Shown: one piece after another, positions 2,677-60,744 of the stretch
Position numbering within the stretch: the stretch's first letter is position 1
Layout: each line of letters begins with the position of its first letter
Notes under the pieces: model-generated
Database searches by the model: none
Told to the model about the DNA's origin: nothing
Seen by the model: the letters and a program-made list of their open reading frames with translations, nothing else
Position numbers and translations under genes: made by a program
DNA from: a virus
Taxonomy: Duplodnaviria > Caudoviricetes
Strand: one strand, 5' to 3'
Length of the DNA: 64,000 nt
IMG/VR virus record: IMGVR_UViG_3300029288_000063
Coordinates: 96,001-160,000 of that record

Positions 2677-3822
2677 ATGAAGATGGAAAAGCGTGTACGT
2701 CTTACAGCCCGTCGTCGCAGTGCCTCGGATGACATTCCGTATCCGGGAACGGTGAATCAGGAAGACCGCAAGTTTGTTGAACGTGACAAGTATGACACGT
2801 TCGAACAGACCATCAACCATGAGCTGCCGGATATGCGCACTGAGTGGCGCAACGATGCTCGTGACGAAATCGGTTTCCCGATTGCCGAAGACCATACCGA
2901 AATCACGGGTACGAAGGATGGGGGTATGACCGTCGCCAGCGTGCGTCAAGCTGCCAGCAAGGCTGTCAAGCTCTCTATGTTGCTGTTGGGCAACAAGGTC
3001 CCGGAGAAAATGATTGAGGGGCAGGCGAAGGATTTCATGCTTCTCGGTTCTGCCGGTCTTGACCGTGCCCTTTCCCGCTTCGCCAAGACCGAGACTTTGT
3101 ATGCTCGCAAGGCGGAAGATGAGGAGGAAGACGAGGAAGAGACTGTCGAAGCTAAGAAGAGTGCTGACGAAGCTCCTGCCGAGGAAAAGAAGGAAGAAAC
3201 CACAGCCAAGAAGTCTGCCGACGAAACGCCTGCCGAGGAGAAGAAGGAAGAAACCACGGCCAAGAAGGGCTCGGACGAGGAAGAGACCACGGCTGAGGAA
3301 GAAGCCCCGAAGGCGAAGAAGGGTGCTGATGAAGCCCCTGCCGCCGAAGAGAAGAAGGAAGAAGCCCCGAAGGCGAAGAAGGGTGCCGACGAGGAAGAGA
3401 CCAAGGCTGATGACGAAGCTCCTGCCGAGGAAACCAAGGCGAAGAAGGGTGCCGAGGAAGACGAGGAAGAGACTGTCGAAGCCAAGAAGGGTGCTGATGA
3501 GGAAGACGACGAGTCCAAGGTTGCCGAGTTGGATATCGAACTTTCTGCCGCAGAAGAGGAAGACACAGAGGAAGATGAGAAATCTGCATCTATTCTGTCC
3601 TCTCTCTATGAAGAGGTGAAGAAGCAGGAAGCTGCTCGTCGCGGTAAGACCTCTGAAGATGATACCGAAGAAGAGGTTGTTGAATCCAAGAAGAGTGCTT
3701 CTGTAAAAGCCCGTGGTGCCCAGAAGCTTGGTGGTCAGCCGCGTATCGCCAGCGACATGTCTGTGAAGGACATCTCTGAGATTTGGGGAGATGTTCCGGA
3801 TGTCAGTGGCGTGTTTAACTGA
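2677..3822 (+). CDS. capsid scaffolding-like protein with AKK(G/S)ADE repeats
   Basis: Low-complexity E/K/A repeats; just upstream of decoration and MCP genes. Confidence 0.6.
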   Translation: MKMEKRVRLTARRRSASDDIPYPGTVNQEDRKFVERDKYDTFEQTINHELPDMRTEWRNDARDEIGFPIAEDHTEITGTKDGGMTVASVRQAASKAVKLSMLLLGNKVPEKMIEGQAKDFMLLGSAGLDRALSRFAKTETLYARKAEDEEEDEEETVEAKKSADEAPAEEKKEETTAKKSADETPAEEKKEETTAKKGSDEEETTAEEEAPKAKKGADEAPAAEEKKEEAPKAKKGADEEETKADDEAPAEETKAKKGAEEDEEETVEAKKGADEEDDESKVAELDIELSAAEEEDTEEDEKSASILSSLYEEVKKQEAARRGKTSEDDTEEEVVESKKSASVKARGAQKLGGQPRIASDMSVKDISEIWGDVPDVSGVFN

Positions 3823-3912
3823 GGCTAACCCGGTGTGTGCCGGATTGGTTTGAAAAGCGGATGGGTTCACGGGTTGTGACCCTTTGTCGAAAACAGGATA
3901 GGAGGTTGTACG

Positions 3913-4419
3913 ATGAGTTTGACGATTTTGATTCGTGGACACCTCTCGTCGATTCCGAGTCTCGCCGATGTCTGCTTCACGCAGGACAATTATGGCGATG
4001 GCACGAACACGACGATGAGTGTGAACACCCCGCGTGGCGTGCTGGGTGGTTCTGTGGCGGCTGTGGCGGCTGCTCCGGATGGCGGTGACTATATTACCGT
4101 TCCGGGCACCCGTGCCTTGACTCCCCTTGGTCTTTTCGTGAATGACGCTGCGGGCGCAGCTTTTGAGAACGCCCCTGCTGTCGCGAGCGGCAAGGTCACG
4201 GTGATGAAGGCTATGGCGTCGGTTGAGGTCGATGTGTTTGAGACACAGACTCGCGCTGACCACGGCGTTGCACTGGTCTATGCGGTTGGTCAGAAGTTGT
4301 ATGCCTCGGATGCTGGTCTGTTGACCAACGAGGCGTCCACCGATGGGACCGTGATTGGTGTCGTCACAAAGATTCCGACGACTGCCAGCCCGACCCTCGG
4401 TTTGGACATGCGTATTTAG
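3913..4419 (+). CDS. head decoration/cement protein
   Basis: 168 aa, G/A/V/T-rich, immediately before MCP; GGAGG RBS. Confidence 0.6.
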   Translation: MSLTILIRGHLSSIPSLADVCFTQDNYGDGTNTTMSVNTPRGVLGGSVAAVAAAPDGGDYITVPGTRALTPLGLFVNDAAGAAFENAPAVASGKVTVMKAMASVEVDVFETQTRADHGVALVYAVGQKLYASDAGLLTNEASTDGTVIGVVTKIPTTASPTLGLDMRI

Positions 4420-4500: not shown

Positions 4501-5361
4501 ATGGCTGTTGATAACCAGACCAAGAATGAAATCATCAGCGCTTTTATCAAGACGTCCGCCGGTCGGTCGCGTCTTGCCGCGTCGATGATTCAGCCTCTCA
4601 GAAAGCGCCGGGACTACGCTTCCGTGGGACGCCGTGCGTTCTTCGTGGAACAGCTTCCGGATGGTGCTCTCCCCATTTACGACAAGGACCCGAACGTTAC
4701 GGCCTATGTCGTTGGTGAGGAAGGCGAGAACATCGTGGCTGTCGCGAAGCCGAAGAGGGTGTTGTTTCCTCTCTTCGAAGTCGCATCGAACCCGGAAATT
4801 CAGCTCACTGAAATCAAGGCTCGTCGCTTTGATTTGATTGAGCGTAGCGTGGACCTCGCGAAGTCTGAGATTCAGGCTGAGGAAGACCGCAAGGTGTTTG
4901 CGGTTATGGATGCGTTGGCCGCTGACCCGACCAACCCGAACCCGGACATCCCGGTCACGACGAACCTGACGGCGAACGCTCTTGCTGACGCCTTCGCGAA
5001 CGTCGAGCGTTCGGACATGCGTGTTGCAAATGTGTTCTTGAATGCCAAGGACTACGCGGACCTGCGTAAGTGGGACCGTGATACCCTCGACATCGAGACT
5101 CAGGCCAAGTTGTTGAAGACCGGTCTGATGGCAACCCTCTGGGGTGCGAAGCTCATCACAAGCCGTATCGTTCCGGAAGGAACTGTTTACGTTTGTGGCG
5201 AACCAGAGTTCTTCGGACGTATCCCCGTCCGCACCGAGTTGACTGTCCTATCCGCCGACGACCCGAAGAACCGCCTGATTGGTTTCAGCATCTTCGAGAA
5301 CATTGGTATCGGGGCGTACAACCCGTATGCGCTCCAGCGCCTCCTGATCTCCCGCGCCTAA
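4501..5361 (+). CDS. major capsid protein (HK97 fold)
   Basis: Strong RBS, biased codons, followed by terminator; TGLMATLWGAKLITSRIVPEG C-terminal pattern of HK97-fold capsids. Confidence 0.8.
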   Translation: MAVDNQTKNEIISAFIKTSAGRSRLAASMIQPLRKRRDYASVGRRAFFVEQLPDGALPIYDKDPNVTAYVVGEEGENIVAVAKPKRVLFPLFEVASNPEIQLTEIKARRFDLIERSVDLAKSEIQAEEDRKVFAVMDALAADPTNPNPDIPVTTNLTANALADAFANVERSDMRVANVFLNAKDYADLRKWDRDTLDIETQAKLLKTGLMATLWGAKLITSRIVPEGTVYVCGEPEFFGRIPVRTELTVLSADDPKNRLIGFSIFENIGIGAYNPYALQRLLISRA

Positions 5362-5523: not shown

Positions 5524-7512
5524 ATGGGGACGCAAACGCACAAGAATCATGGGTTGAATAAAGATATGGTGGAGCAGTTATATCTTCGAGACGGGTTGAG
5601 TGATTCGGAGATTGGTTCGAGGTTTGGGTTGACTGGTGAGGGTGTTGCGTACTTCAGAAGAAAGTACGGCATCAAAACGATTTCTCAGTCTGATAGGATA
5701 TCTATCAGGGCAAGAAAGATCGGACTGATGGAGCTTTCTGTGGTTTCTGATGATGAGTTGATTCGGTTATATGATAAGCATGGGATGGTTACTCTTGGGA
5801 GGATGTTTGGGTGCAGCAAAATTCCAATCCGAGAAAAACTGCGCCGTCTAGGGGTTTGCATAAAAACGAAGCAAGATAGGACGGTAAGCGGGCATCCGGA
5901 CAGCCTGTCCCTGATGCAGCAGGAGGTGTTGATTGGGTCGCTGCTTGGAGATGGATGCCTCGTTGTGAACAACCTCGGGGATGCTGCCCATTTCCAAGAG
6001 ATGCATTCGGCAGCTCAGAGGCGATATCTGGAGTGGAAGCACGATGTGTTCATGCCTTTCTCCAAAAGGATTCACAAAGAGGATAAGGTGTTGGACGATG
6101 GGAGGGAATCGAAGGGTTTTGGTTTTAAGACATGTGTTCATCCGTTGTTTGTTCGGTTCTATGATATGTTTTATGGGGGAGCCAAAAAGCATCTTCCAGA
6201 TGGCTTGATGAGGAATATCTCGCCACTGAGTTTAGCGGTCTGGTATATGGACGATGGCTGTCTTTCTGATCAAAATAAGGACGGAGTATTCACGATAGCC
6301 TCTGGGTTTTGTAAAGAATCTGTTGAGGTTATTGCTGATTCGCTTAATGATCGGTTTCAGTTTGATATTGAAGTTCGCGAAGTAGATAGTGTGTCTGTTC
6401 TTGTTTTTCATAACAAGCAGAAATTCTTCGATGTTATTGGTAGGCACATTGTTCCGTCGATGGCATATAAGGTTCCTTTGAGTTTGAGGTTTTCCATGCC
6501 TCATATTCGGAATCCGAAGTTGTATGGGTTGCCAAACAAACTTTCTCCTGCGGAGGTTGCGAATCCATCTGAAGGACTGTTGGATGATCTTGTTGAGTTT
6601 TGGCAGGTTGCAGGGTTTCCTTTTCCAAGCGTTCCGAAGAAAGACAAGAGGTTGAGCGAGATAGAAGCGGTCAGAAATTCCAAGATAGAGCTTTCAGAAG
6701 TAGTTGGGTCTGGATTCTCTTCTGGCTGTGGGTTGTGTCTGTCGTTCTTCGAGAATGTTTGGTCGGTGAAACGGCATGGGCAAAAAAGCCCAGAGGATGT
6801 GTTTTACGATAAGGCTCTCTTGAGGCATGCTATCCGTGACTGCTTGAAGCATCGTGGTGGGTGTCGGGAGTCGGAATTGCGTTCTGAGCTTCGAACGTTT
6901 GGAGGGGTCCAAACGTTTCGTCCGGTTGTCGCAAGGGCAATTTATGATCGCTATTGCCCGGTTGGCGGGCGAGTTCTTGATCCCTGTTCTGGTTGGGGAG
7001 GGCGATTGCTTGGGTTCTATGCGTCCGTTGTGTCGGAGTATATCGGGGTTGATGCGAATCCAGATACCGTGAAGGGGCTGAAACATATGCGGTGTTTGTT
7101 GGGTCGGGATGTTGCGGGTAAGTCTGTTGATATTAAATATGCCGCTTTTGAGGACTTGAAACTTGATGGATCATTTGATGTCGTCTTTACGTCGCCTCCG
7201 TATTTCTGTAAAGAGTTGTACGGGGACGATGAGTTTCAGAGTTATGTCCGGTATGGCAAATACAACGATTGGCGGGATGGATTTTTGAAGCCTCTTGTTG
7301 AGAAGTCCGTTTCCGTTTTGAAGCGTGGAGGTTTTTTGATACTCAATGTTGCGGATGTTCGGGTTGGTGGTGATGTTTTCCCACTTGTCGAAGACACACG
7401 CTCGCTGATGAAGTCTGTTATAGGGCTGTTTGCGGAACACAACATGGAGTTTCTGAGTCCATATGGCGGGAAGACAAGGTTTGAACCAATTCTCGTTGGT
7501 CGGAAGGATTGA
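5524..7512 (+). CDS. HTH + LAGLIDADG endonuclease + DNA amino-methyltransferase fusion
   Basis: LIGSLLGDG and LAVWYMDDG motifs; C-terminal VLDPCSGWGG (motif I) and TSPPY (motif IV). Confidence 0.8.
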   Translation: MGTQTHKNHGLNKDMVEQLYLRDGLSDSEIGSRFGLTGEGVAYFRRKYGIKTISQSDRISIRARKIGLMELSVVSDDELIRLYDKHGMVTLGRMFGCSKIPIREKLRRLGVCIKTKQDRTVSGHPDSLSLMQQEVLIGSLLGDGCLVVNNLGDAAHFQEMHSAAQRRYLEWKHDVFMPFSKRIHKEDKVLDDGRESKGFGFKTCVHPLFVRFYDMFYGGAKKHLPDGLMRNISPLSLAVWYMDDGCLSDQNKDGVFTIASGFCKESVEVIADSLNDRFQFDIEVREVDSVSVLVFHNKQKFFDVIGRHIVPSMAYKVPLSLRFSMPHIRNPKLYGLPNKLSPAEVANPSEGLLDDLVEFWQVAGFPFPSVPKKDKRLSEIEAVRNSKIELSEVVGSGFSSGCGLCLSFFENVWSVKRHGQKSPEDVFYDKALLRHAIRDCLKHRGGCRESELRSELRTFGGVQTFRPVVARAIYDRYCPVGGRVLDPCSGWGGRLLGFYASVVSEYIGVDANPDTVKGLKHMRCLLGRDVAGKSVDIKYAAFEDLKLDGSFDVVFTSPPYFCKELYGDDEFQSYVRYGKYNDWRDGFLKPLVEKSVSVLKRGGFLILNVADVRVGGDVFPLVEDTRSLMKSVIGLFAEHNMEFLSPYGGKTRFEPILVGRKD

Positions 7513-7562: not shown

Positions 7563-8018
7563 ATGCCTGATTCGTTTCGCAAAGAAGTTGATGTAGCGTA
7601 TCGTCGTGTTCATGGTTTCGAGAGAGAAGACATGATGGCTCAACGTATTGCGTCTGAGTTGGTTCGTGTTGCCCGTGATGTGTCGGCTGTTCCTGCAACA
7701 GATATTCTTGTGACGAAAAACGCCCTTGTTGGGCGTTCGGAGCGTGTTGTTGCGGCTGTCAATCGCGAGAGTGTTTTGTTCAATCTCTCTATGCGGATGA
7801 ATCAAGTGTATAGTCGGAAAAACATGATGTTGATTACCTTTAGTCCTCGTTGGAAAGAGGATAAATTTATCAACAAGGAAGGACAGAGTTCTGAGGTTCC
7901 GGTGTCGGCAGTGTATCGTCGTTTTGTTGAGAAGGCGATATTGTCGAGCTTTGGAGACGATGTTCTTGTTCAGTGGAAAGATGATATTTGTTGGATTAAG
8001 GTTTCGTTTGAGGATTGA
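7563..8018 (+). CDS. hypothetical, putative internal virion protein
   Basis: RBS; IASELVRVAR motif. Confidence 0.55.
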   Translation: MPDSFRKEVDVAYRRVHGFEREDMMAQRIASELVRVARDVSAVPATDILVTKNALVGRSERVVAAVNRESVLFNLSMRMNQVYSRKNMMLITFSPRWKEDKFINKEGQSSEVPVSAVYRRFVEKAILSSFGDDVLVQWKDDICWIKVSFED

Positions 8019-8037: not shown

Positions 8038-8691
8038 ATGGTTGACAATAATGTTGCTTTCGAGTTGATTCGTTTGGCAAAGACGCTTGTCGGTTTAGAT
8101 GTTGATGTGTATAAGAAGAAGGCTTTTATTATTGCTGACCAAATGTCTAAAAAGTCTAAAGTTATTCGTGTCAAGTCTGAGGTTGAGTTGAAGTCTGGTA
8201 AGGTAGTAATAGTGTTCAAAGCCAGCCTTATATTAAAAGACATATATATAAACACTGACGAAGGTAGTGGTTTGATTTTTACCATGTCTCGCGAATATAT
8301 GGAAGATTTAAGGAATTTGGTAAAAATTCACATCGGTTTGTTTGATGTTGATTTCTCGTCCGGTTCTGTTATGAGTTATGGTCGTTTGGCTCGGGTAGTT
8401 GTTCCTGTTGAGCGTTCCGTTGATAAGGTTCAGTATTTTAAACTATTTGATGATGGTGTTTTGTCAAGTAAGATTGAAAGTGTTTTAACACCTCCCAGTA
8501 GCTTACCAGTTGATTGGGATTTTGTTTTGATTCAATATTCAGATGGTTCTATGGCTTCTGGGCGTTCTTTTTCTAATGGTTGGCGTATGAATAATGAAAA
8601 CAACCTCAACCTGAAGTTTGTTGGTGAGAGTAAAAAGTTTTCATATGATGCTCGTCCTTTTAGCAAGTTCAAAAAACTTTTAACCAAGTGA
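8038..8691 (+). CDS. hypothetical, putative internal virion protein
   Basis: VAFELIRLAK N-terminal motif. Confidence 0.55.
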   Translation: MVDNNVAFELIRLAKTLVGLDVDVYKKKAFIIADQMSKKSKVIRVKSEVELKSGKVVIVFKASLILKDIYINTDEGSGLIFTMSREYMEDLRNLVKIHIGLFDVDFSSGSVMSYGRLARVVVPVERSVDKVQYFKLFDDGVLSSKIESVLTPPSSLPVDWDFVLIQYSDGSMASGRSFSNGWRMNNENNLNLKFVGESKKFSYDARPFSKFKKLLTK

Positions 8692-8988: not shown

Positions 8989-9780
8989 ATGAATGTGTCT
9001 GTTGAACTTGTTCGTGTCGCCCGGTTGTTGTGTGGCGAAAAGACTGTTGAGGTTGATGGTGGGAAAGATGTCCGCCATCAACTTCAGTCTATTCAGCGTG
9101 CCGGTGATGTTGCGACGTTTATGTACCAGAAGAAGGACGGAACGTCGCGCAAGGTCCACGTTAAACCGACGTCTGTATTTGGCGATAAGTTCAAAGCTGT
9201 TGACCTTGATGCGGCGGGTGCAGAGAAGTTGTTTTTGATGAGCGGCGTGCAGCCGTTGGCGTCGAGTCATGCACCGGCGGTTCCGGTTGTTCATGAGCCG
9301 AAGAAGTTCAAGTTTCAAGACAAGGTGCTTATGGACAATGATATTTCCCGGTCATTGCATGGACTGGTAAAAAAGGGCGGCGCGTGGGCGTCCGAGCGGC
9401 AGCGGGATTTCATTCTCGGGAAGATTGCTCGGGATGGTGATTCTGCAAGAAGGTTGTTGCCGCGAGGTGTGTTTGGTTTGATAGGGAGAGGTGGAGTTTT
9501 GAGCGGTTGGGAGTCGACAGGTGATGGGTTTTCGAGCTGCTGGTTGTTCCGGGTTGACGATGTTGGTGTTGTTGACAAGATTTTAATTTGGCAAAAAACA
9601 ACCCCGATGGACCGTGAGCAAGCGGCGTATGAGCAGGCGATGGAAGACCTGTATGATGATATGGGTGGTCGTCCGGACCGCTATATGGTTGAAGAGCTTA
9701 AGTCGCATTATTCCCAACATGCGCGGAGTTGGTCGGGTCAACAAAAAGGTGGTACGAAAGTAAAATGGAGTCGTATGTGA
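8989..9780 (+). CDS. hypothetical, putative internal virion protein
   Basis: VSVELVRVAR N-terminal motif. Confidence 0.55.
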   Translation: MNVSVELVRVARLLCGEKTVEVDGGKDVRHQLQSIQRAGDVATFMYQKKDGTSRKVHVKPTSVFGDKFKAVDLDAAGAEKLFLMSGVQPLASSHAPAVPVVHEPKKFKFQDKVLMDNDISRSLHGLVKKGGAWASERQRDFILGKIARDGDSARRLLPRGVFGLIGRGGVLSGWESTGDGFSSCWLFRVDDVGVVDKILIWQKTTPMDREQAAYEQAMEDLYDDMGGRPDRYMVEELKSHYSQHARSWSGQQKGGTKVKWSRM

Positions 9781-22118: not shown

Positions 22119-22140
22119 AGGCGGATAACCTCCGCCTTTT
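22119..22140 (+). terminator. terminator ending tRNA block 1
   Basis: AGGCGGA/TCCGCCT plus T-tract. Confidence 0.7.
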
Positions 22141-22187: not shown

Positions 22188-22649
22188 ATGACCATACAGG
22201 AAATCGGTGGTATATTTGGTATTTTGTCGATGGTTTTCAGTCTAGGTATTTGGCTTTTCAAACGAGGAGCCGATGTGGGTGCGTTTTCGGCTCGCTTCGG
22301 TCAGTTTGCGGAATCGTTGAACTCCTTGAGGCGGCGTCAAGATTCAGCGGAAAAAAGCATTAAACTGTTAGTGGAGGATAGCGTTGATGGTGGTGTTAAT
22401 TGGTCGGTTAAAAAGCTGAAAGAAGATGTCCGTGGTATAATTGAAGATAGTAGAAATATTTCTGACTCGGCAAAACAATCCGAAGTGTTGGCAAGGGAAG
22501 CCTTGGAGCAGATTAAAAAGTTAGACGAAGAGAATGACAAGGAACACGGTAAGAATCAAGCACAGATTATTTTGCTTGCAAAGCAGATTCGTGCAATCAT
22601 TGAACACCTTAATGAGAATGTGCGGAATCAGAAAACAAAACCACAGTAA
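22188..22649 (+). CDS. N-terminal TM plus coiled-coil protein (holin-like?)
   Basis: One TM then coiled coil. Confidence 0.45.
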   Translation: MTIQEIGGIFGILSMVFSLGIWLFKRGADVGAFSARFGQFAESLNSLRRRQDSAEKSIKLLVEDSVDGGVNWSVKKLKEDVRGIIEDSRNISDSAKQSEVLAREALEQIKKLDEENDKEHGKNQAQIILLAKQIRAIIEHLNENVRNQKTKPQ

Positions 22650-22711
22650 AAAGTCGTTCCGGAACTATATAGTGTAATTGATTGGTGTTTTTTTGTATTT
22701 TTATAAGGGGT

Positions 22712-23236
22712 ATGAGAATGAAAACGTTTTCTGTATTTCTTGTCGTTGTGTTGTGCTCTGGGTGTGAATTTTCGACCTCTGGGTCATCCTCTGTGTTGCC
22801 TGTAAGTATGAATGTTCAACGTGCGGTGTTGCATTCCGGTGGTCAGGTTGCCACATCTGCCCTTTTAGACAGTTCGTCTATAGACAAGGTTGACCAGCGT
22901 ATTGCAGACACGAAGGTTATTGTCAATGAGATTCGGCAACTCCTTGATACAGGTAAGTTTGGGGCAATGACTTTGGTTGAGCTTCAGTCTGGATTGAACA
23001 AGATTGTTCCGGCTGAATATTCCATTTACTCATCTCAGATTGTATCGGCTGTGTCTGCGTTCGTAACTGTTCCTACCGATAAGCTTGGTGAAAACAACAT
23101 TCTTCGTATTAAGGAAGTTTTGGACGGCATCGAACTTCGCTGCGAACGCTACGACAAGACTGCCCGTCTGAGCGACCGCAGTCTGTCTGCTCCTGCGAAG
23201 ACTCCGAAGAGTGCTGTTCGCATTGTTGTTCAGTGA
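22712..23236 (+). CDS. lipoprotein
   Basis: Signal peptide with LCSGC lipobox. Confidence 0.6.
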   Translation: MRMKTFSVFLVVVLCSGCEFSTSGSSSVLPVSMNVQRAVLHSGGQVATSALLDSSSIDKVDQRIADTKVIVNEIRQLLDTGKFGAMTLVELQSGLNKIVPAEYSIYSSQIVSAVSAFVTVPTDKLGENNILRIKEVLDGIELRCERYDKTARLSDRSLSAPAKTPKSAVRIVVQ

Positions 23237-23251
23237 TTCCGCGAGGAAAAT

Positions 23252-23473
23252 ATGATTGACAACCACACTGTTGGTTCTGTGAAACGCATTTCGCCGGTGT
23301 TGAATAGGAATGCTATTGTAAAGAGTGGTGGAGTCCTCCAACAGTCGGAGGAGGTTGGTTATGTTGTAAGGGAGAAAATCGGCGTTGGAGTATATAACCC
23401 ATCCGCGTTAAATCTGTTCTTAAAAAAAGAGTCTGAAGGGGCGTTGCCTGTTTATGATGAAGACCCGAATTGA
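23252..23473 (+). CDS. mini-protein made of two MCP-like segments
   Basis: GAGG RBS; local similarity to 4501-5361. Confidence 0.6.
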   Translation: MIDNHTVGSVKRISPVLNRNAIVKSGGVLQQSEEVGYVVREKIGVGVYNPSALNLFLKKESEGALPVYDEDPN

Positions 23474-25641
23474 AATTCTGTTATGAACTTGATATAGGAA
23501 AGCTGAATATGATCAGGAGAGTTCTTTTTTCGATAGTAGTGGTTGCTGCTATTTGCACTGTTGTTTTAGTGACGATATCAATGACTGTCGTCAAAAATGG
23601 ATTCTCTTCTGTAGATGAGGATCGGGTGATTGAATCCTCACACCTTGTTCGTTCTATCGTTCAAAGAGAATTGCTCGGTTTGGCCAGCACTGTTGGGGAT
23701 TGGTCACGGTGGGATGATGCTTGGGAGTATGTTAATCAAGACGGCAAAGATAGGTCTTTTGTCGAACAAAATATTGATCTCGCTTCACTATTACAGTTGC
23801 GCGTGTTTTATGTCATGTTTCTTGGACGGGATGGACATCCTATTTCCGAATTTGTTGTTCGTGACGGGGACATCTATGAGGTTCCGAATTCCGAGCTGTC
23901 CTTGGCGTCTATAGATGGTTTTCAATCGGCATCTGAACGGTGCATGCGCGGCGAGGTTGTGCAGGGTTTGTCTTGGATAGGAGACAAGATGTCCTTGGTG
24001 GCAATGTCGTCTATCTCTAAGTCGGACGGTTCGTGTGTCGGAAACGGTATGTTGGTTTTCTGTCGTGATGCGTCCGGTATGGTTTCGGAAATTAACAAGA
24101 CGTTTGAGTCGTTTTCGATATCCGGTGATTGTTCAAGCGAGATAATGAACGACCTCGTTATCAATACCTCCGATTCGAGCGTGTCTGGGACTTTTCTTGT
24201 TCCCAGTGTTGAGGGAGGGAAAAACTATCTCGCAAGCCTATCTGTTCCGAGCTTTTCCGAGTTGCAGGGCAACCGCATTATCCTTGTTTTCGTTTTTGCG
24301 AGTATAGGGTTTGTTTTCGTTGTTTCGATTGCGCTGTGGAAGGTTGTTGATAGGATGGTATTATCGAGGCTTTCTGTCACAATGTCCGCTGTCAAAGAGA
24401 TTGGTCGTTCTGCCGATGTGACAAAGAAGCTGCCCGGTGGTGAATGTTCTGATGAGTTTGGCGTTTTCATTCACAACTTGAACGATATGCTTGAATCTAT
24501 TCGCGTGTCAGAAGAAAAGACAAAAGAATCAGAAAATGCTTTAAAACGTTCTGAGCGAGTAACACTTCTTGGCAAATTCGCGGAGGGTATTGCGCACGAC
24601 CTGAATAACCTTTTGGCAATTATTAAGGGCTATGCGGACTCGTTGAAGTTTGCCGGTTCACTTTCTGAATCTCTCGTGCTGTGTGACAACATAAGTTCCA
24701 CAGTCGGAGAATGTACGGCTTTGATTGGTAAGATTTTGTCGTTTTCGAGGCGTGGTAATATCAACTTTGTGCCGGTTGATCTGCACCCATTGTTGGGTGA
24801 TATATGTTCGATGTTTCATTACGCCATAGAGAAAAAGAGTGTATGTTTTGAATCGGTTATGGGGGCGGAGAACAGTGTGGTTCATGGGAACAAGTCTGAA
24901 ATTCAAAATGCCATATTGAGTCTGTTGGTTAATGCCCGAGAGGCTGTTTCTGATAATGGTCATATCTTTATCAAATCAAGAAACGTTATCGACCCTGACG
25001 GTTTGTCTTCTGGTGAATATGTGGAGGTGGAGGTGAGTGATGACGGTGTTGGAATTCCTCCGTCGATTATGAAAAATCTTTTTGTTCCATTTCAAACAAC
25101 AAAGGAATATGGAAAGGGTCTTGGACTTTCTTTTGTTCATGGGACGGCGGAAAGACACAAAGGAAGGGTAAGTGTTTCCAGTATTCCCGGTAAAACATCT
25201 GTGCTGCTCTTGATTCCGTGCTCTGAAAAAAAGGCTAGTGTTCCGGAGAAAAACAGCGTTATGAGACATAAGACTCCGTGTGTTGTGCATGTCGAAGATG
25301 AGGCGGCCATTCGTGAAATCGTTAAGTTGCAGCTTGAGGATGATGGGTTTTGTGTGAAATCTTTTGCGCATGGTGATGGTGCGATTAGTTATGTTCGTGA
25401 ACACAAGCAAGATGTTGACTTTGCGATTCTCGACTTCGCGGTTCCTCCTGTGGATGGTGTTTACATCTTTCATGAGATGAGAAAGATTATACCAACTCTT
25501 CCAGTTGCGTTTATGACTGGTTTTTGTGACGCTAGGGCTGAAGACTTGCGTGCCGAGGGGGCGGTCGGTGTTTTCGAGAAACCAATCAATTTCAAGTCAG
25601 TTCTTAGTCTTCTGAACGATATACTTGGAAAGCGTGGGTAG
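23470..25641 (+). CDS. hybrid sensor histidine kinase (CHASE4-HAMP-HisKA-HATPase-REC)
   Basis: DWSRWDD, AHDLNN, N/G1/F/G2 boxes, receiver EDE..D..KP. Confidence 0.9.
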   Translation: MKFCYELDIGKLNMIRRVLFSIVVVAAICTVVLVTISMTVVKNGFSSVDEDRVIESSHLVRSIVQRELLGLASTVGDWSRWDDAWEYVNQDGKDRSFVEQNIDLASLLQLRVFYVMFLGRDGHPISEFVVRDGDIYEVPNSELSLASIDGFQSASERCMRGEVVQGLSWIGDKMSLVAMSSISKSDGSCVGNGMLVFCRDASGMVSEINKTFESFSISGDCSSEIMNDLVINTSDSSVSGTFLVPSVEGGKNYLASLSVPSFSELQGNRIILVFVFASIGFVFVVSIALWKVVDRMVLSRLSVTMSAVKEIGRSADVTKKLPGGECSDEFGVFIHNLNDMLESIRVSEEKTKESENALKRSERVTLLGKFAEGIAHDLNNLLAIIKGYADSLKFAGSLSESLVLCDNISSTVGECTALIGKILSFSRRGNINFVPVDLHPLLGDICSMFHYAIEKKSVCFESVMGAENSVVHGNKSEIQNAILSLLVNAREAVSDNGHIFIKSRNVIDPDGLSSGEYVEVEVSDDGVGIPPSIMKNLFVPFQTTKEYGKGLGLSFVHGTAERHKGRVSVSSIPGKTSVLLLIPCSEKKASVPEKNSVMRHKTPCVVHVEDEAAIREIVKLQLEDDGFCVKSFAHGDGAISYVREHKQDVDFAILDFAVPPVDGVYIFHEMRKIIPTLPVAFMTGFCDARAEDLRAEGAVGVFEKPINFKSVLSLLNDILGKRG

Positions 25642-25706
25642 CTCAATGGCAGAGCGAGGGCTTCTAAAGCCCTGCGTTATGGGTTCGAGTCCCATCCTAC
25701 GCACCA
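25632..25706 (+). tRNA. amber suppressor tRNA (CTA)
   Basis: Canonical cloverleaf, loop TT-CTA-AA, CCA. Confidence 0.88.
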
Positions 25707-26060: not shown

Positions 26061-26185
26061 GTTTTCCGTTTTCCGCCGCCGCGCCTGCAATTGGCACCCC
26101 CGTCTTTGGCGGGGGTGTTTTTATTTTTTTCTTATTGCAATACCTTTTCGCGTGTGTATAGTATTCGCAAATGGAGGATTTGACC

Positions 26186-56820: not shown

Positions 56821-56905
56821 TTTTCTATGGGGTGGGAGGTAACGCCTCCCACCCTGTGGTTCCGTCTTTTTCTTTGGTTGTCACATTTTGCTCAGGAGGG
56901 ATTGC

Positions 56906-59074
56906 ATGGCGATGGACAAGAAACGCGAAGACCGTATTCGCAAGATTTGCGAAGGCGTTCAAAAAGCGTTTGGTGGTGGTAACACTACCGATGGGAAGAT
57001 TATCACCTATTTGGGTGATGAGGAGCGTGAACCGCTGGAGCGGTTTTCGTCTGGGTGTTTCGAGCTTGATGAGGCGTTGGGTGGTGGTTGGCCGCGTGGT
57101 CGTATGATTGAGATTTACGGACCAGAATCTGGCGGAAAATGTCACGCCAAAGGAACCAAGATTTTGATGTTCGACGGATACCTCAAGAACGTAGAAGACA
57201 TCGAGGTTGGTGACTGGGTGATGGGACCGGATTCTACGCCTCGTCAGGTGCAAGCGTTGGCGCGTGGTTCTGAAATGATGTATCGCGTGACGCCACGTAA
57301 GGGACTGGACAACAGTTTTGTTGTAAACGAAAACCACGTTTTGTGCCTGAAGAACACCGAGATTGGTTCGAAGTTTGGTGAGATTGTCGACATTTCCTTG
57401 AAGGACTACATGGGGAAAAGTGACAACTTCCGTTACTACAACAAGCTGTTTCAGGTTCCGGTCGAATGGTCAGAGAAAGAGTTACCTGTAGACCCTTATT
57501 TCTTGGGTCTGTGGCTTGGTGATGGTAGTTCTGACTGTGTTCGTGTTTATACACAAGATGAGGAAGTTGTGTCGGCTCTGGAAGAGTACGGCGAAAGGAT
57601 TGGACACTCTCTTTCTGTGGTTGATGACGAGTCCGGAAGGTGTCCGGGTTACTCTCTTGTTGTTGGCAAAGGGAAGTACCAATCCGAGTTTTGCTTACAG
57701 GGTGCCTTGCGTTCTTTGGGTGTTTTGAACAACAAACACATCCCTCATATCTTCAAAACAGGAAGCCGCACACAGCGTTTGGAATTGTTGGCGGGGTTGC
57801 TGGATTCTGACGGGTATAAGGGTGCGTCAAAGTTGGTGTTTTGCAACACCAATAAAGTCCTTGCTGAAGATGTTCTATTTGTTGCTCGTTCGCTTGGTTT
57901 CTTCTGTAACCTCAAAGAGTACACGGCAAGGCTTGGCGAGTTTTCGTGTCCGGCTTACAAGGTTTACATTAACGGTGATTGTTCGGTTGTCCCGTTGCGT
58001 GTTTCCCGTAAACGTCCGTCGGAACGCGAGTCGAATAGGGACCCGTTGGTGTCGTCGTTTGAAGTTGAGTCGGTTGGTGTTGGAGAGTTTTTTGGTTTTA
58101 TTCTGGATGGTGACCATCGGTATCTGATGGGGAATTTTATCGTCCAGCACAACACCACCCTGTGTTATCATGCGGTTGCAGAGTTCCAGAAGAAATATCC
58201 GGACGAGGATATCGCGTGGGTGGATTCGGAATACGCGTTGGACCCTGAATATGCCGAGAAGATTGGCGTAGACATTTCGACGATTATCCACCACGAACCC
58301 ACAGACGGCAATCAGGCGTTTGAGGTAATTCGGCACCTGATCAAGAGCGGGGTCAAGCTGATTATTGTTGACTCTGTTGCCGCACTGTCGCCGAAAGAAG
58401 AAATTGAGGCGTCGATGGAAGACACTCAGCGTCTTGGTTCGGCAGCACGCATGATGTCGCAAGCGTTGCGTGTCTTGGTTGGCGAGGTTGGTCGTGCAGG
58501 TGTAACGATTCTCTTTACCAACCAAGTCCGTGATAAGCCGGGAGTGATGTGGGGAGAGAAAACCACTACCCCCGGTGGTCGTGCGTTGCGGTTCTACGCT
58601 TCGATTCGTGTGGATATTCGCGGCATTGGTCAGGAGAAGGATGGTGAGTTGGTCACATCCATGCACACGAAGGCGTTGTGCAAGAAGAACAAGACCGCGC
58701 CCCCACTCCGTGTTGCCAATTTCATCATTTCGTTTGGCGTTGGCGTTGACCGGATTGCCGGTATCTTCGACAAGTCTGTTGAGCGGAAGGTGATTGAAAA
58801 GGCCGGGGCTTGGTTCTCGTTTGACGGGAACCGTCTTGGTCAGGGTCGTTCCGCGTCCCTTACGCAGTTGCGTGAGAACGAGGAGCTGTTGGCTGAGGTG
58901 GAAAAGAAGCTTCTTGCCGCCCCGGCTGTTGTTGTCGAGAAGAAGTCGTCGATGAAGAAAGCCCGTGGGAAGAAGTCCTCTACGGAAGATGAGGACACAG
59001 AGCCGTCACCGGAACCCGATTTGGAAGTTGGTGGGGATGGTGCGGCGGAAGGAACCTCTGTCGATGACGCATGA
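56906..59074 (+). CDS. recA: RecA recombinase with intein
   Basis: LGGGWPRGR.IEIYGPESGGK|TT, VDSVAAL, NQVR, GGRALRFYAS. Confidence 0.95.
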   Translation: MAMDKKREDRIRKICEGVQKAFGGGNTTDGKIITYLGDEEREPLERFSSGCFELDEALGGGWPRGRMIEIYGPESGGKCHAKGTKILMFDGYLKNVEDIEVGDWVMGPDSTPRQVQALARGSEMMYRVTPRKGLDNSFVVNENHVLCLKNTEIGSKFGEIVDISLKDYMGKSDNFRYYNKLFQVPVEWSEKELPVDPYFLGLWLGDGSSDCVRVYTQDEEVVSALEEYGERIGHSLSVVDDESGRCPGYSLVVGKGKYQSEFCLQGALRSLGVLNNKHIPHIFKTGSRTQRLELLAGLLDSDGYKGASKLVFCNTNKVLAEDVLFVARSLGFFCNLKEYTARLGEFSCPAYKVYINGDCSVVPLRVSRKRPSERESNRDPLVSSFEVESVGVGEFFGFILDGDHRYLMGNFIVQHNTTLCYHAVAEFQKKYPDEDIAWVDSEYALDPEYAEKIGVDISTIIHHEPTDGNQAFEVIRHLIKSGVKLIIVDSVAALSPKEEIEASMEDTQRLGSAARMMSQALRVLVGEVGRAGVTILFTNQVRDKPGVMWGEKTTTPGGRALRFYASIRVDIRGIGQEKDGELVTSMHTKALCKKNKTAPPLRVANFIISFGVGVDRIAGIFDKSVERKVIEKAGAWFSFDGNRLGQGRSASLTQLRENEELLAEVEKKLLAAPAVVVEKKSSMKKARGKKSSTEDEDTEPSPEPDLEVGGDGAAEGTSVDDA
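57140..58153 (+). mobile_element. intein with LAGLIDADG endonuclease in the RecA P-loop
   Basis: CHAKGT..NENH..LGLWLGDG..LAGLLDSDG..QHN|T. Confidence 0.92.
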
Positions 59075-60570: not shown

Positions 60571-60744
60571 ATGGTTGCCGAGGATTTCATGATGTCTGCA
60601 CAGCCTTTAAGAATGCGCCGGGATTACGGCGAAGTTGAACCAAAGAAGACTTTGTGTGAAGACCAGTATTGTAAACGAATAAATCGACATGCGGTTGTTC
60701 GTGAGTTGGTTGCTGTTGCGAGGTTTTTAAGTTCTGCGAAATAA
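60571..60744 (+). CDS. 57-aa protein with VVRELVAVARFL motif
   Basis: Translated by hand; followed by hairpin. Confidence 0.4.
   Translation: MVAEDFMMSAQPLRMRRDYGEVEPKKTLCEDQYCKRINRHAVVRELVAVARFLSSAK

Follow-up and report, generated by a model that had tools for sequence, protein, structure and literature searches.

A gene of 73 codons in a huge phage, which we call the mini-gene, encodes two pieces of the phage's own capsid protein (MCP) in swapped order: a C-terminal piece comes first and an N-proximal piece abuts it. On sequence comparison, this mini-gene is descended from MCP sequence. The reading we prefer, to which we give an even chance of being right, is that it is a real, lineage-specific small gene derived from the phage's own MCP, held under constraint and kept as a mimic of the P domain of that protein. 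Capsid proteins, more conserved than any other proteins of phages, are known to be targeted by bacterial immune sensors. An accessory factor made of a rearranged excerpt of the capsid edge domain would be of a kind new to phages, be it a mimic, a decoy or an assembly brake, and would provide a clean natural example of circular permutation extracting a discontinuous domain from a protein. The swapped design recurs in the cultured phage Tunturi_5, which makes the role of the mini-protein experimentally testable and more interesting.

The window, that is, the whole stretch of 64,000 nucleotides that we analysed, corresponds to bases 96001-160000 of a 253,102-bp IMG/VR virus record with a completeness of about 75% (CheckV). 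All genes of this phage lie on one strand; its tRNA genes number 55, one of them an amber suppressor, and a tmRNA is also present. Along the window, the head module, with a protease at 332-1345, candidate scaffold genes at 2677-4419 and the MCP gene, is followed by a LAGLIDADG-methyltransferase gene, a 30-kb tRNA island with accessory genes and a replication module. The MCP gene (4501..5361, plus strand), source of both mini-gene segments, encodes a 286-aa protein with an HK97 fold of the phage-G type, as identified by profile matches (phrog_2522, E 3.7e-53; NF042927, E 1e-45; PDB 6wkk, phage G gp27, E 1.8e-77). Many metagenomic relatives have an MCP with 87-94% amino-acid identity to this one, and the remaining genome is far more diverged than the MCP, other proteins being 40-60% identical to those of the closest relative (hereafter G006). 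The nearest named phages are the uncultured LR745208.1 (70%), Tunturiibacter phage Tunturi_5 (48%) and Bacillus phage G (36.5%). Directly 3' of the MCP gene, a LAGLIDADG endonuclease is fused to a DNA methyltransferase-like domain (5524-7512, plus strand); this gene is not a recent invader, since it occupies the same place in G006 (49% amino-acid identity). Further along, a UvsX-like recombinase gene (56888-59074, plus strand) aligns with its family in three pieces arranged around a large insert, which has terminase-like or intein-like matches and probably represents an intein inside the gene.

The mini-gene (23252..23473, plus strand) is located in a hypervariable tRNA island with many homing endonucleases. 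An earlier, sequence-only reading of this locus had placed it 18 kb from the MCP gene, and we measured 17.9 kb, the MCP gene lying upstream. The same reading had given it its own ribosome-binding site, and this site, the coordinates and the TGA stop were all confirmed in the sequence: the open reading frame starts with ATG behind a Shine-Dalgarno GAGGA (23243..23247, plus strand), which is read from the sequence 4 nt 5' of the ATG and 7 nt past the upstream stop. The ATG follows the upstream stop by 15 nt, and 35 nt separate the end of the mini-gene from the next start. Its codon usage scores 0.364 bits per codon in frame, versus -1.03 and -1.15 out of frame, which places it at the 43rd percentile among genuine coding pieces (average 0.39 +/- 0.19) and exceeds the scores of 99.5% of minus-strand ORFs of 60-95 aa. 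The protein has no match in Pfam, PHROG, NCBIfam or PADLOC and, as far as its sequence tells, neither a signal peptide nor a membrane segment.

The mini-gene belongs to a four-gene cassette (22188..25641, plus strand) encoding, in order, a 153-aa membrane/coiled-coil protein, a 184-aa lipoprotein-like protein, the mini-protein and a CHASE4 hybrid histidine kinase-receiver. Terminator-like hairpins at 22119-22137 and 26093-26119 bracket the cassette, in which GC3 is uniformly low (0.42-0.45, with 0.45 for the mini-gene) relative to the genome mean of 0.54 and to 0.70 in the MCP gene. The larger 21-27 kb cassette, comprising an HNH endonuclease, the membrane protein, the lipoprotein-like protein, the mini-protein and the CHASE4 hybrid kinase, has no counterpart in G006, where the interval between the MCP and RNA ligase genes is similar in length to that of the window. 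The two genes preceding the mini-gene lie within 22188-23236 (plus strand). The 153-aa protein combines an N-terminal membrane segment with a coiled coil and shows weak Rz-like spanin and phrog_1009 matches, and the 184-aa protein has, by eye, a lipoprotein-like signal; from these features, they may form a spanin-like pair or an envelope module that cooperates with the kinase. The phage-encoded kinase (23509-25641, plus strand) unites a CHASE4 sensor histidine kinase and a receiver domain in one protein, and its stop codon sits within the amber-suppressor tRNA gene (25632-25706). Close relatives of the 184-aa protein and of the kinase are absent from IMG/VR and GTDB genomes, so these neighbours provide neither a host clue nor a syntenic comparator. 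We also considered a frameshift fusion of the mini-gene to the kinase and rejected it, the kinase frame being open just 10 nt before the mini-gene stop and a slippery site being absent.

Two segments of the mini-protein match the MCP. Segment 1 (aa 31-57; 23342..23422, plus strand) corresponds to MCP 254-282 (5260..5346, plus strand), the last P-domain strand, and includes a GxGxYNPxAL block. Segment 2 (aa 55-73; 23414..23470, plus strand) forms the C-terminal tail of the mini-protein and corresponds to MCP 46-65 (4636..4695, plus strand), which leads into the E-loop; it includes GALPxYDxDPN. With BLASTP, residues 55-73 align to MCP 47-65 with 10/19 identities (E 2e-6) and residues 35-57 to MCP 260-282 with 11/23 identities (E 6e-6). 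A hidden Markov model (HMM) built from 62 MCPs of the family gives the mini-protein 20.3 bits over two domains, the first aligning residues 31-54 to profile positions 254-277; taken singly, the domains are weak (11.5 and 8.4 bits). When this model was run over the 253-kb genome, represented by its 5,653 stop-to-stop ORFs (25 aa or more), its sole hits were the MCP and the mini-protein (E 6.8e-5); among 175,243 ORFs that had been shuffled or reversed, the highest score was 10.5 bits. The presence of two capsid segments in reversed order had been proposed previously, and it stands: the identities quoted at the time (10/19 and 9/12) are exact, and BLASTP and the HMM agree.

Similarity to the MCP is not significant over residues 1-30 (shuffle P 0.59), and the mini-protein has no full-length match above the family threshold in the HK97-fold MCP family (NF042927 / phrog_2522 / PF05065). 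Among 182 family MCPs, its best match is the phage's own MCP, tied with one other (21/42 identities). A foreign donor was rejected, as neither any family MCP nor the MCPs of Tunturi_5 or phage G match the mini-protein better than the own MCP does, and no closer donor MCP turned up when 1.84 billion representatives were searched exhaustively. A general scatter of structural-gene fragments was also discarded: when all small ORFs were compared with all large ones by BLASTP, no other small ORF hit one large protein twice.

In the HK97 fold, the P domain consists of an N-proximal part and a C-terminal part with the A domain between them in sequence, and in assembled capsomers the E-loop of the neighbouring subunit rests on the P domain. 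The HK97 gp5-length profile TIGR01554 aligns its positions 146-380 with MCP 55-278. Based on this alignment and on general knowledge of the fold, MCP 46-65 would be the stretch running from the N-arm into the first E-loop strand, and MCP 254-282 would comprise the last P-domain strand and the start of the C-terminal A-domain strand. Between the two segments, the MCP contains the E-loop, the spine helix and the complete axial (A) domain; the mini-protein has no counterpart of MCP 66-253, so that E-loop hairpin, spine helix and A domain are all missing. Lacking these elements, with 73 aa instead of 286 and with scores below the family thresholds, it cannot form capsomers or build a shell. The two pieces had previously been pictured as capsid 'epitopes'. 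This is probably wrong, because both are structural P-domain elements in the TIGR01554 alignment and their order fits a circular permutation that drops the A domain.

An AF2 model of the MCP proved unusable for mapping the segments: its mean pLDDT is 59, and values fall below 50 over residues 46-102 and 259-271, where both segments sit. Single-sequence AF2 modelling of the mini-protein suggests a long hairpin at residues 10-41, with only one of five models reaching a pLDDT of 68 and low confidence in segment 2. Complex prediction with the MCP alignment and the mini-protein gave a score of 0.00, which, being obtained without controls, speaks neither for nor against binding.

How old is the mini-gene, and has it been constrained? 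Over 39 aligned codons, mini-gene and MCP gene differ at 16 first, 6 second and 29 third positions, and only 7 of the 21 identical residues share the same third base (counted by hand on the codon alignment). DNA similarity is undetectable and synonymous sites are saturated, so the mini-gene is not a recent copy. Second positions are much better conserved than first positions (Fisher P 0.02), and the replacements are conservative: 30 of the 39 positions score positive, for a BLOSUM62 sum of 124. In simulations placing the same number of position-1 and position-2 changes at random, this sum was 76.7 +/- 11.1 and none of about 8,000 stop-free runs reached 124, while only 40% of the simulated, equally diverged copies were stop-free over the 39 codons. 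The conservative signal is inflated to some extent, as the alignment was chosen for its high score, and part of it may have been inherited from an unsampled divergent MCP donor. Seven residues that are invariant in the MCP family (V49, E50, P53, K62, R258, S263 and F265) are changed in the mini-protein, which indicates that it evolved under rules unlike those of a working MCP. Judging from these substitution patterns, the mini-gene looks like an old, constrained gene, neither a fresh copy nor junk.

We found no orthologue or strain variant of the mini-protein among 5.8 billion proteins of near and longer lengths or among 1.84 billion representatives, nor any orthologue in IMG/VR contigs, JGI metagenome contigs or GenBank phages, in each of which it is a singleton. 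Selection on the mini-gene is therefore not directly measurable. Three repeat proteins retrieved from the 1.84 billion representatives (a tail-fibre-like GIG..NP..AL repeat, a helical repeat and a tandem-repeat ORF) were rejected as homologues because their scores were summed over 4-8 repeats. When the mini-protein was used as query on the records of nine relatives, it matched their MCP genes only. Analogous genes, which were found with the MCP family profile and not with the mini-protein as query, exist in Tunturi_5 and in another relative (hereafter G005).

Tunturi_5 is a cultured jumbo phage that grows on Tunturiibacter psychrotolerans (PMC11924767). Its gp172 (XOB77615.1; PP885688.1 122430-122723; L128:1931-2224, minus strand in L128) is a 97-aa protein annotated as hypothetical, whose gene is located among replication genes, far from the head genes. 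Residues 34-61 match positions 267-294 of the Tunturi_5 MCP (E 7.6e-7) and are directly followed by residues 62-92, which match positions 90-120 (E 6.6e-12). Overall, 37 of 59 residues are identical (63%), the same codon is used in only 20 of these 37, and the BLOSUM sum is 180 versus 101 +/- 13 at random. The first piece ends where that of the mini-protein does, just after NPxAxQ and before the final A-domain strand of the MCP. Both genes are thus small ORFs outside the head module in which a C-terminal P-domain strand of the own MCP directly precedes an N-proximal P-domain element, with conservative substitutions. However, the second piece of gp172 covers the post-E-loop strand and the start of the spine helix, not the pre-E-loop stretch found in the mini-protein; gp172 is much less diverged from its own MCP; and its N-terminus carries, by eye, a twin-arginine-like export signal. 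BLASTP gives no alignment between the two proteins at E < 0.05, with no likeness beyond the MCP-derived blocks, and each is closest to the MCP of its own phage. From these comparisons, parallel invention may be as likely as common descent.

The genome of G005 (IMGVR_UViG_3300028840_006907) is complete, with 469.6 kb and direct terminal repeats, and also holds free-standing MCP parts as accessory genes, within the same group of phages. One of them (L119:1174-1923, plus strand), lying between methyltransferase- and glycosyltransferase-like genes, encodes a 249-aa paralogue in which an extra N-terminal domain precedes MCP 27-122 (pre-E-loop stretch, E-loop and post-E-loop strand), and a linker connects the latter to MCP 241-275, the C-terminal hairpin of the P domain. 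This protein contains both regions present in the mini-protein and likewise has no spine helix or A domain, but it is larger and keeps the native order, a similar A-domain-free result having been reached by internal deletion. The other (L118:1345-1842, minus strand) encodes a 165-aa paralogue of the A domain only (MCP 155-237, E 2e-22). Like the mini-protein, gp172 and the 249-aa paralogue stand as singletons in IMG/VR and among GenBank phages, and no extra MCP fragments were found in phage G or LR745208.1 at E <= 1.

Duplication followed by truncation is the classic route to circular permutation, and fragments of oligomerising proteins are the classic competitive binders among dominant-negative microProteins. 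The mini-protein, a fragment of an oligomerising protein, would fit both models, although no tandem intermediate is preserved. The MCP gene would have been duplicated in tandem and then truncated at both ends, giving a circular permutation from which the A domain was lost; a C-terminal part placed before an N-proximal one is the product expected of these events. As the A domain splits the parts of the P domain in sequence, joining the C-terminal to the N-proximal part is the shortest way to bring elements of the P domain together without the A domain. The copy is old; it lies in an accessory cassette of distinct composition and, to judge from its substitution patterns, has diverged under constraint on the protein.

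We infer that the product acts as a mimic of the P-domain surface, binding a normal contact of that part of the MCP. Candidate partners would be the E-loop of the neighbouring subunit, a factor involved in head assembly, or a factor, from the host or a rival, able to recognise free MCP. The decoy and assembly-modulator roles suggested in the sequence-only reading may be special cases of such mimicry. Because gp172 has an apparent export signal and the mini-gene has membrane and sensor-kinase neighbours, the role may lie elsewhere than in cytoplasmic capsid assembly. More speculatively, and against our own expectation, huge phages with phage-G-type capsids could repeatedly evolve free-standing, sometimes permuted, P-domain excerpts that mimic unassembled MCP, the mini-protein and gp172 being two members of an undescribed class of microproteins. 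Such excerpts might cap E-loops, and so act on the timing or place of assembly of a very large shell, or occupy host or rival-phage factors that recognise this surface.

The literature we searched describes no permuted or excerpted MCP mini-gene. This is the new element here; MCP-derived accessory proteins with full folds and MCP peptides sensed by defences are known. Compared with the phage-G-type MCP (NF042927 capsid_Caudo_2, phrog_2522; phage G gp27, PDB 6WKK), the mini-protein keeps the P-domain motif blocks in its two segments but differs by its size, its swapped segment order and its missing elements. The vertex protein gp24 of T4 and Ccm, a capsid-size-redirecting MCP homologue of cos-type phage satellites, are, like the mini-protein, MCP descendants, and their roles on or in capsids differ from that of the main shell protein; however, they have a complete HK97 fold and are incorporated in shells, while the mini-protein is a two-strand excerpt. 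In defence, the Gol region of T4 gp23 is sensed by Lit with EF-Tu, and CapRel SJ46 senses the MCP. There, a short part of the MCP is the recognised element, but it lies within the MCP itself and triggers defence, whereas the mini-protein is encoded by a separate gene. We know of no separate phage gene encoding a Gol-like MCP fragment.

Could the resemblance or the gene itself be of no consequence? That two short motifs look alike by chance is very improbable. Each segment is weak alone, and the GxGxxNPSAL-like block resembles a common tail-fibre repeat, the source of the spurious repeat-protein matches mentioned above; but both matches fall on one protein, their joint score and genome-wide E-value stand far from the null distribution, in which no sequence exceeded 10.5 bits, and gp172 displays the same architecture with much stronger scores. 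Chance is close to refuted by this null distribution. A non-functional relic deserves more consideration, and we regard it as possible, if well short of an even prospect: the mini-gene would be what rearrangement left of an old MCP duplicate, or of the MCP of a co-infecting relative, and would by chance still be open behind a fortuitous ribosome site. Its status as a singleton in every database and relative searched fits such a scrap, as do the changed family-invariant residues, the 30 N-terminal residues that match nothing and a locus in a hypervariable tRNA island rich in homing endonucleases. However, decay would account neither for second positions being far better kept than first ones nor for replacements much more conservative than random, and codon usage is gene-like and neighbour-matched despite saturated synonymous sites. 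Both segments also share one frame behind a Shine-Dalgarno sequence, fewer than half of the simulated, equally diverged copies stayed free of stops, and intact analogous genes occur in two relatives.

Two further explanations accept a real gene with another function. The MCP strands may serve just as a small beta structure, exapted as a scaffold for a function of the cassette, for example modulation of the kinase or of the membrane/lipoprotein pair, with no link to the capsid. We consider this unlikely. Small proteins that tune sensor kinases, such as MgrB and SafA, are well known, and the mini-gene is co-oriented, tightly spaced and similar in composition to the membrane, lipoprotein-like and sensor kinase genes; yet its best-conserved residues are the MCP motif blocks, no kinase accompanies the analogues in Tunturi_5 and G005, whose neighbourhoods are quite different, and the mini-protein has no signal peptide or membrane segment with which to reach a periplasmic CHASE4 domain. 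Alternatively, it could be an immune decoy, occupying a host sensor of unassembled MCP, in the logic of CapRel or Lit, without triggering it. Capsid-triggered defences do exist, with CapRel SJ46 and the Lit/Gol system, and the mini-protein copies surface elements of the MCP from within an accessory island. This nevertheless appears quite unlikely: there is no PADLOC-related match, the literature searched holds no phage decoy of this kind, and a fragment bearing the recognised element could trigger a sensor as easily as block it. Besides, the analogue gp172 is apparently exported, and its twin-arginine-like signal, as seen by eye, is a poor fit to a purely cytoplasmic decoy in Tunturi_5.

A second small ORF in the window (60571..60744, plus strand), followed by a terminator-like hairpin and a T-run, combines an MCP N-arm motif with a C-terminal helix tag shared with other proteins of the phage. 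Within its 57 aa, residues 11-22 match MCP 31-42, an invariant N-arm block, at 9/12 positions (BLASTP E 2e-4 in a single comparison). With the MCP HMM it scores 9.2 bits; across 31 shuffled genome-equivalents, two ORFs reach this value, or about 0.06 per genome by chance. Its MCP match, taken alone, is borderline, and the ORF may be a further mini-gene made from an MCP fragment; its helix tag is found by the tag HMM with an E-value of 1.6e-7.

This tag, an amphipathic helix of roughly V-A-basic-E-L-L-x-V-A-basic-x-L (VA+ELLxVA+xL-like), occurs at the N- or C-termini of about 25 plus-strand ORFs. A simple pattern for it has 15 occurrences in the genome, versus 0.1 expected from shuffles. It was sought on the mini-protein and rejected there, the tag HMM giving no hit even at E 10. 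In the window, the tagged ORFs are located at 7563-8018, 8038-8691, 8989-9780 and 60571-60744 (all plus strand); in genome coordinates, tagged plus-strand ORFs are found at 59.6-67.2 kb, 84.8, 92.7, 95.5, 188.6-191.1 and 210.4-213.1 kb. Many of these genes cluster next to the head genes. In its A-x-E core the tag resembles signals for the prohead protease or for capsid targeting that T4-like and giant phages use and, by this analogy, the tagged proteins may be sent into the phage head.
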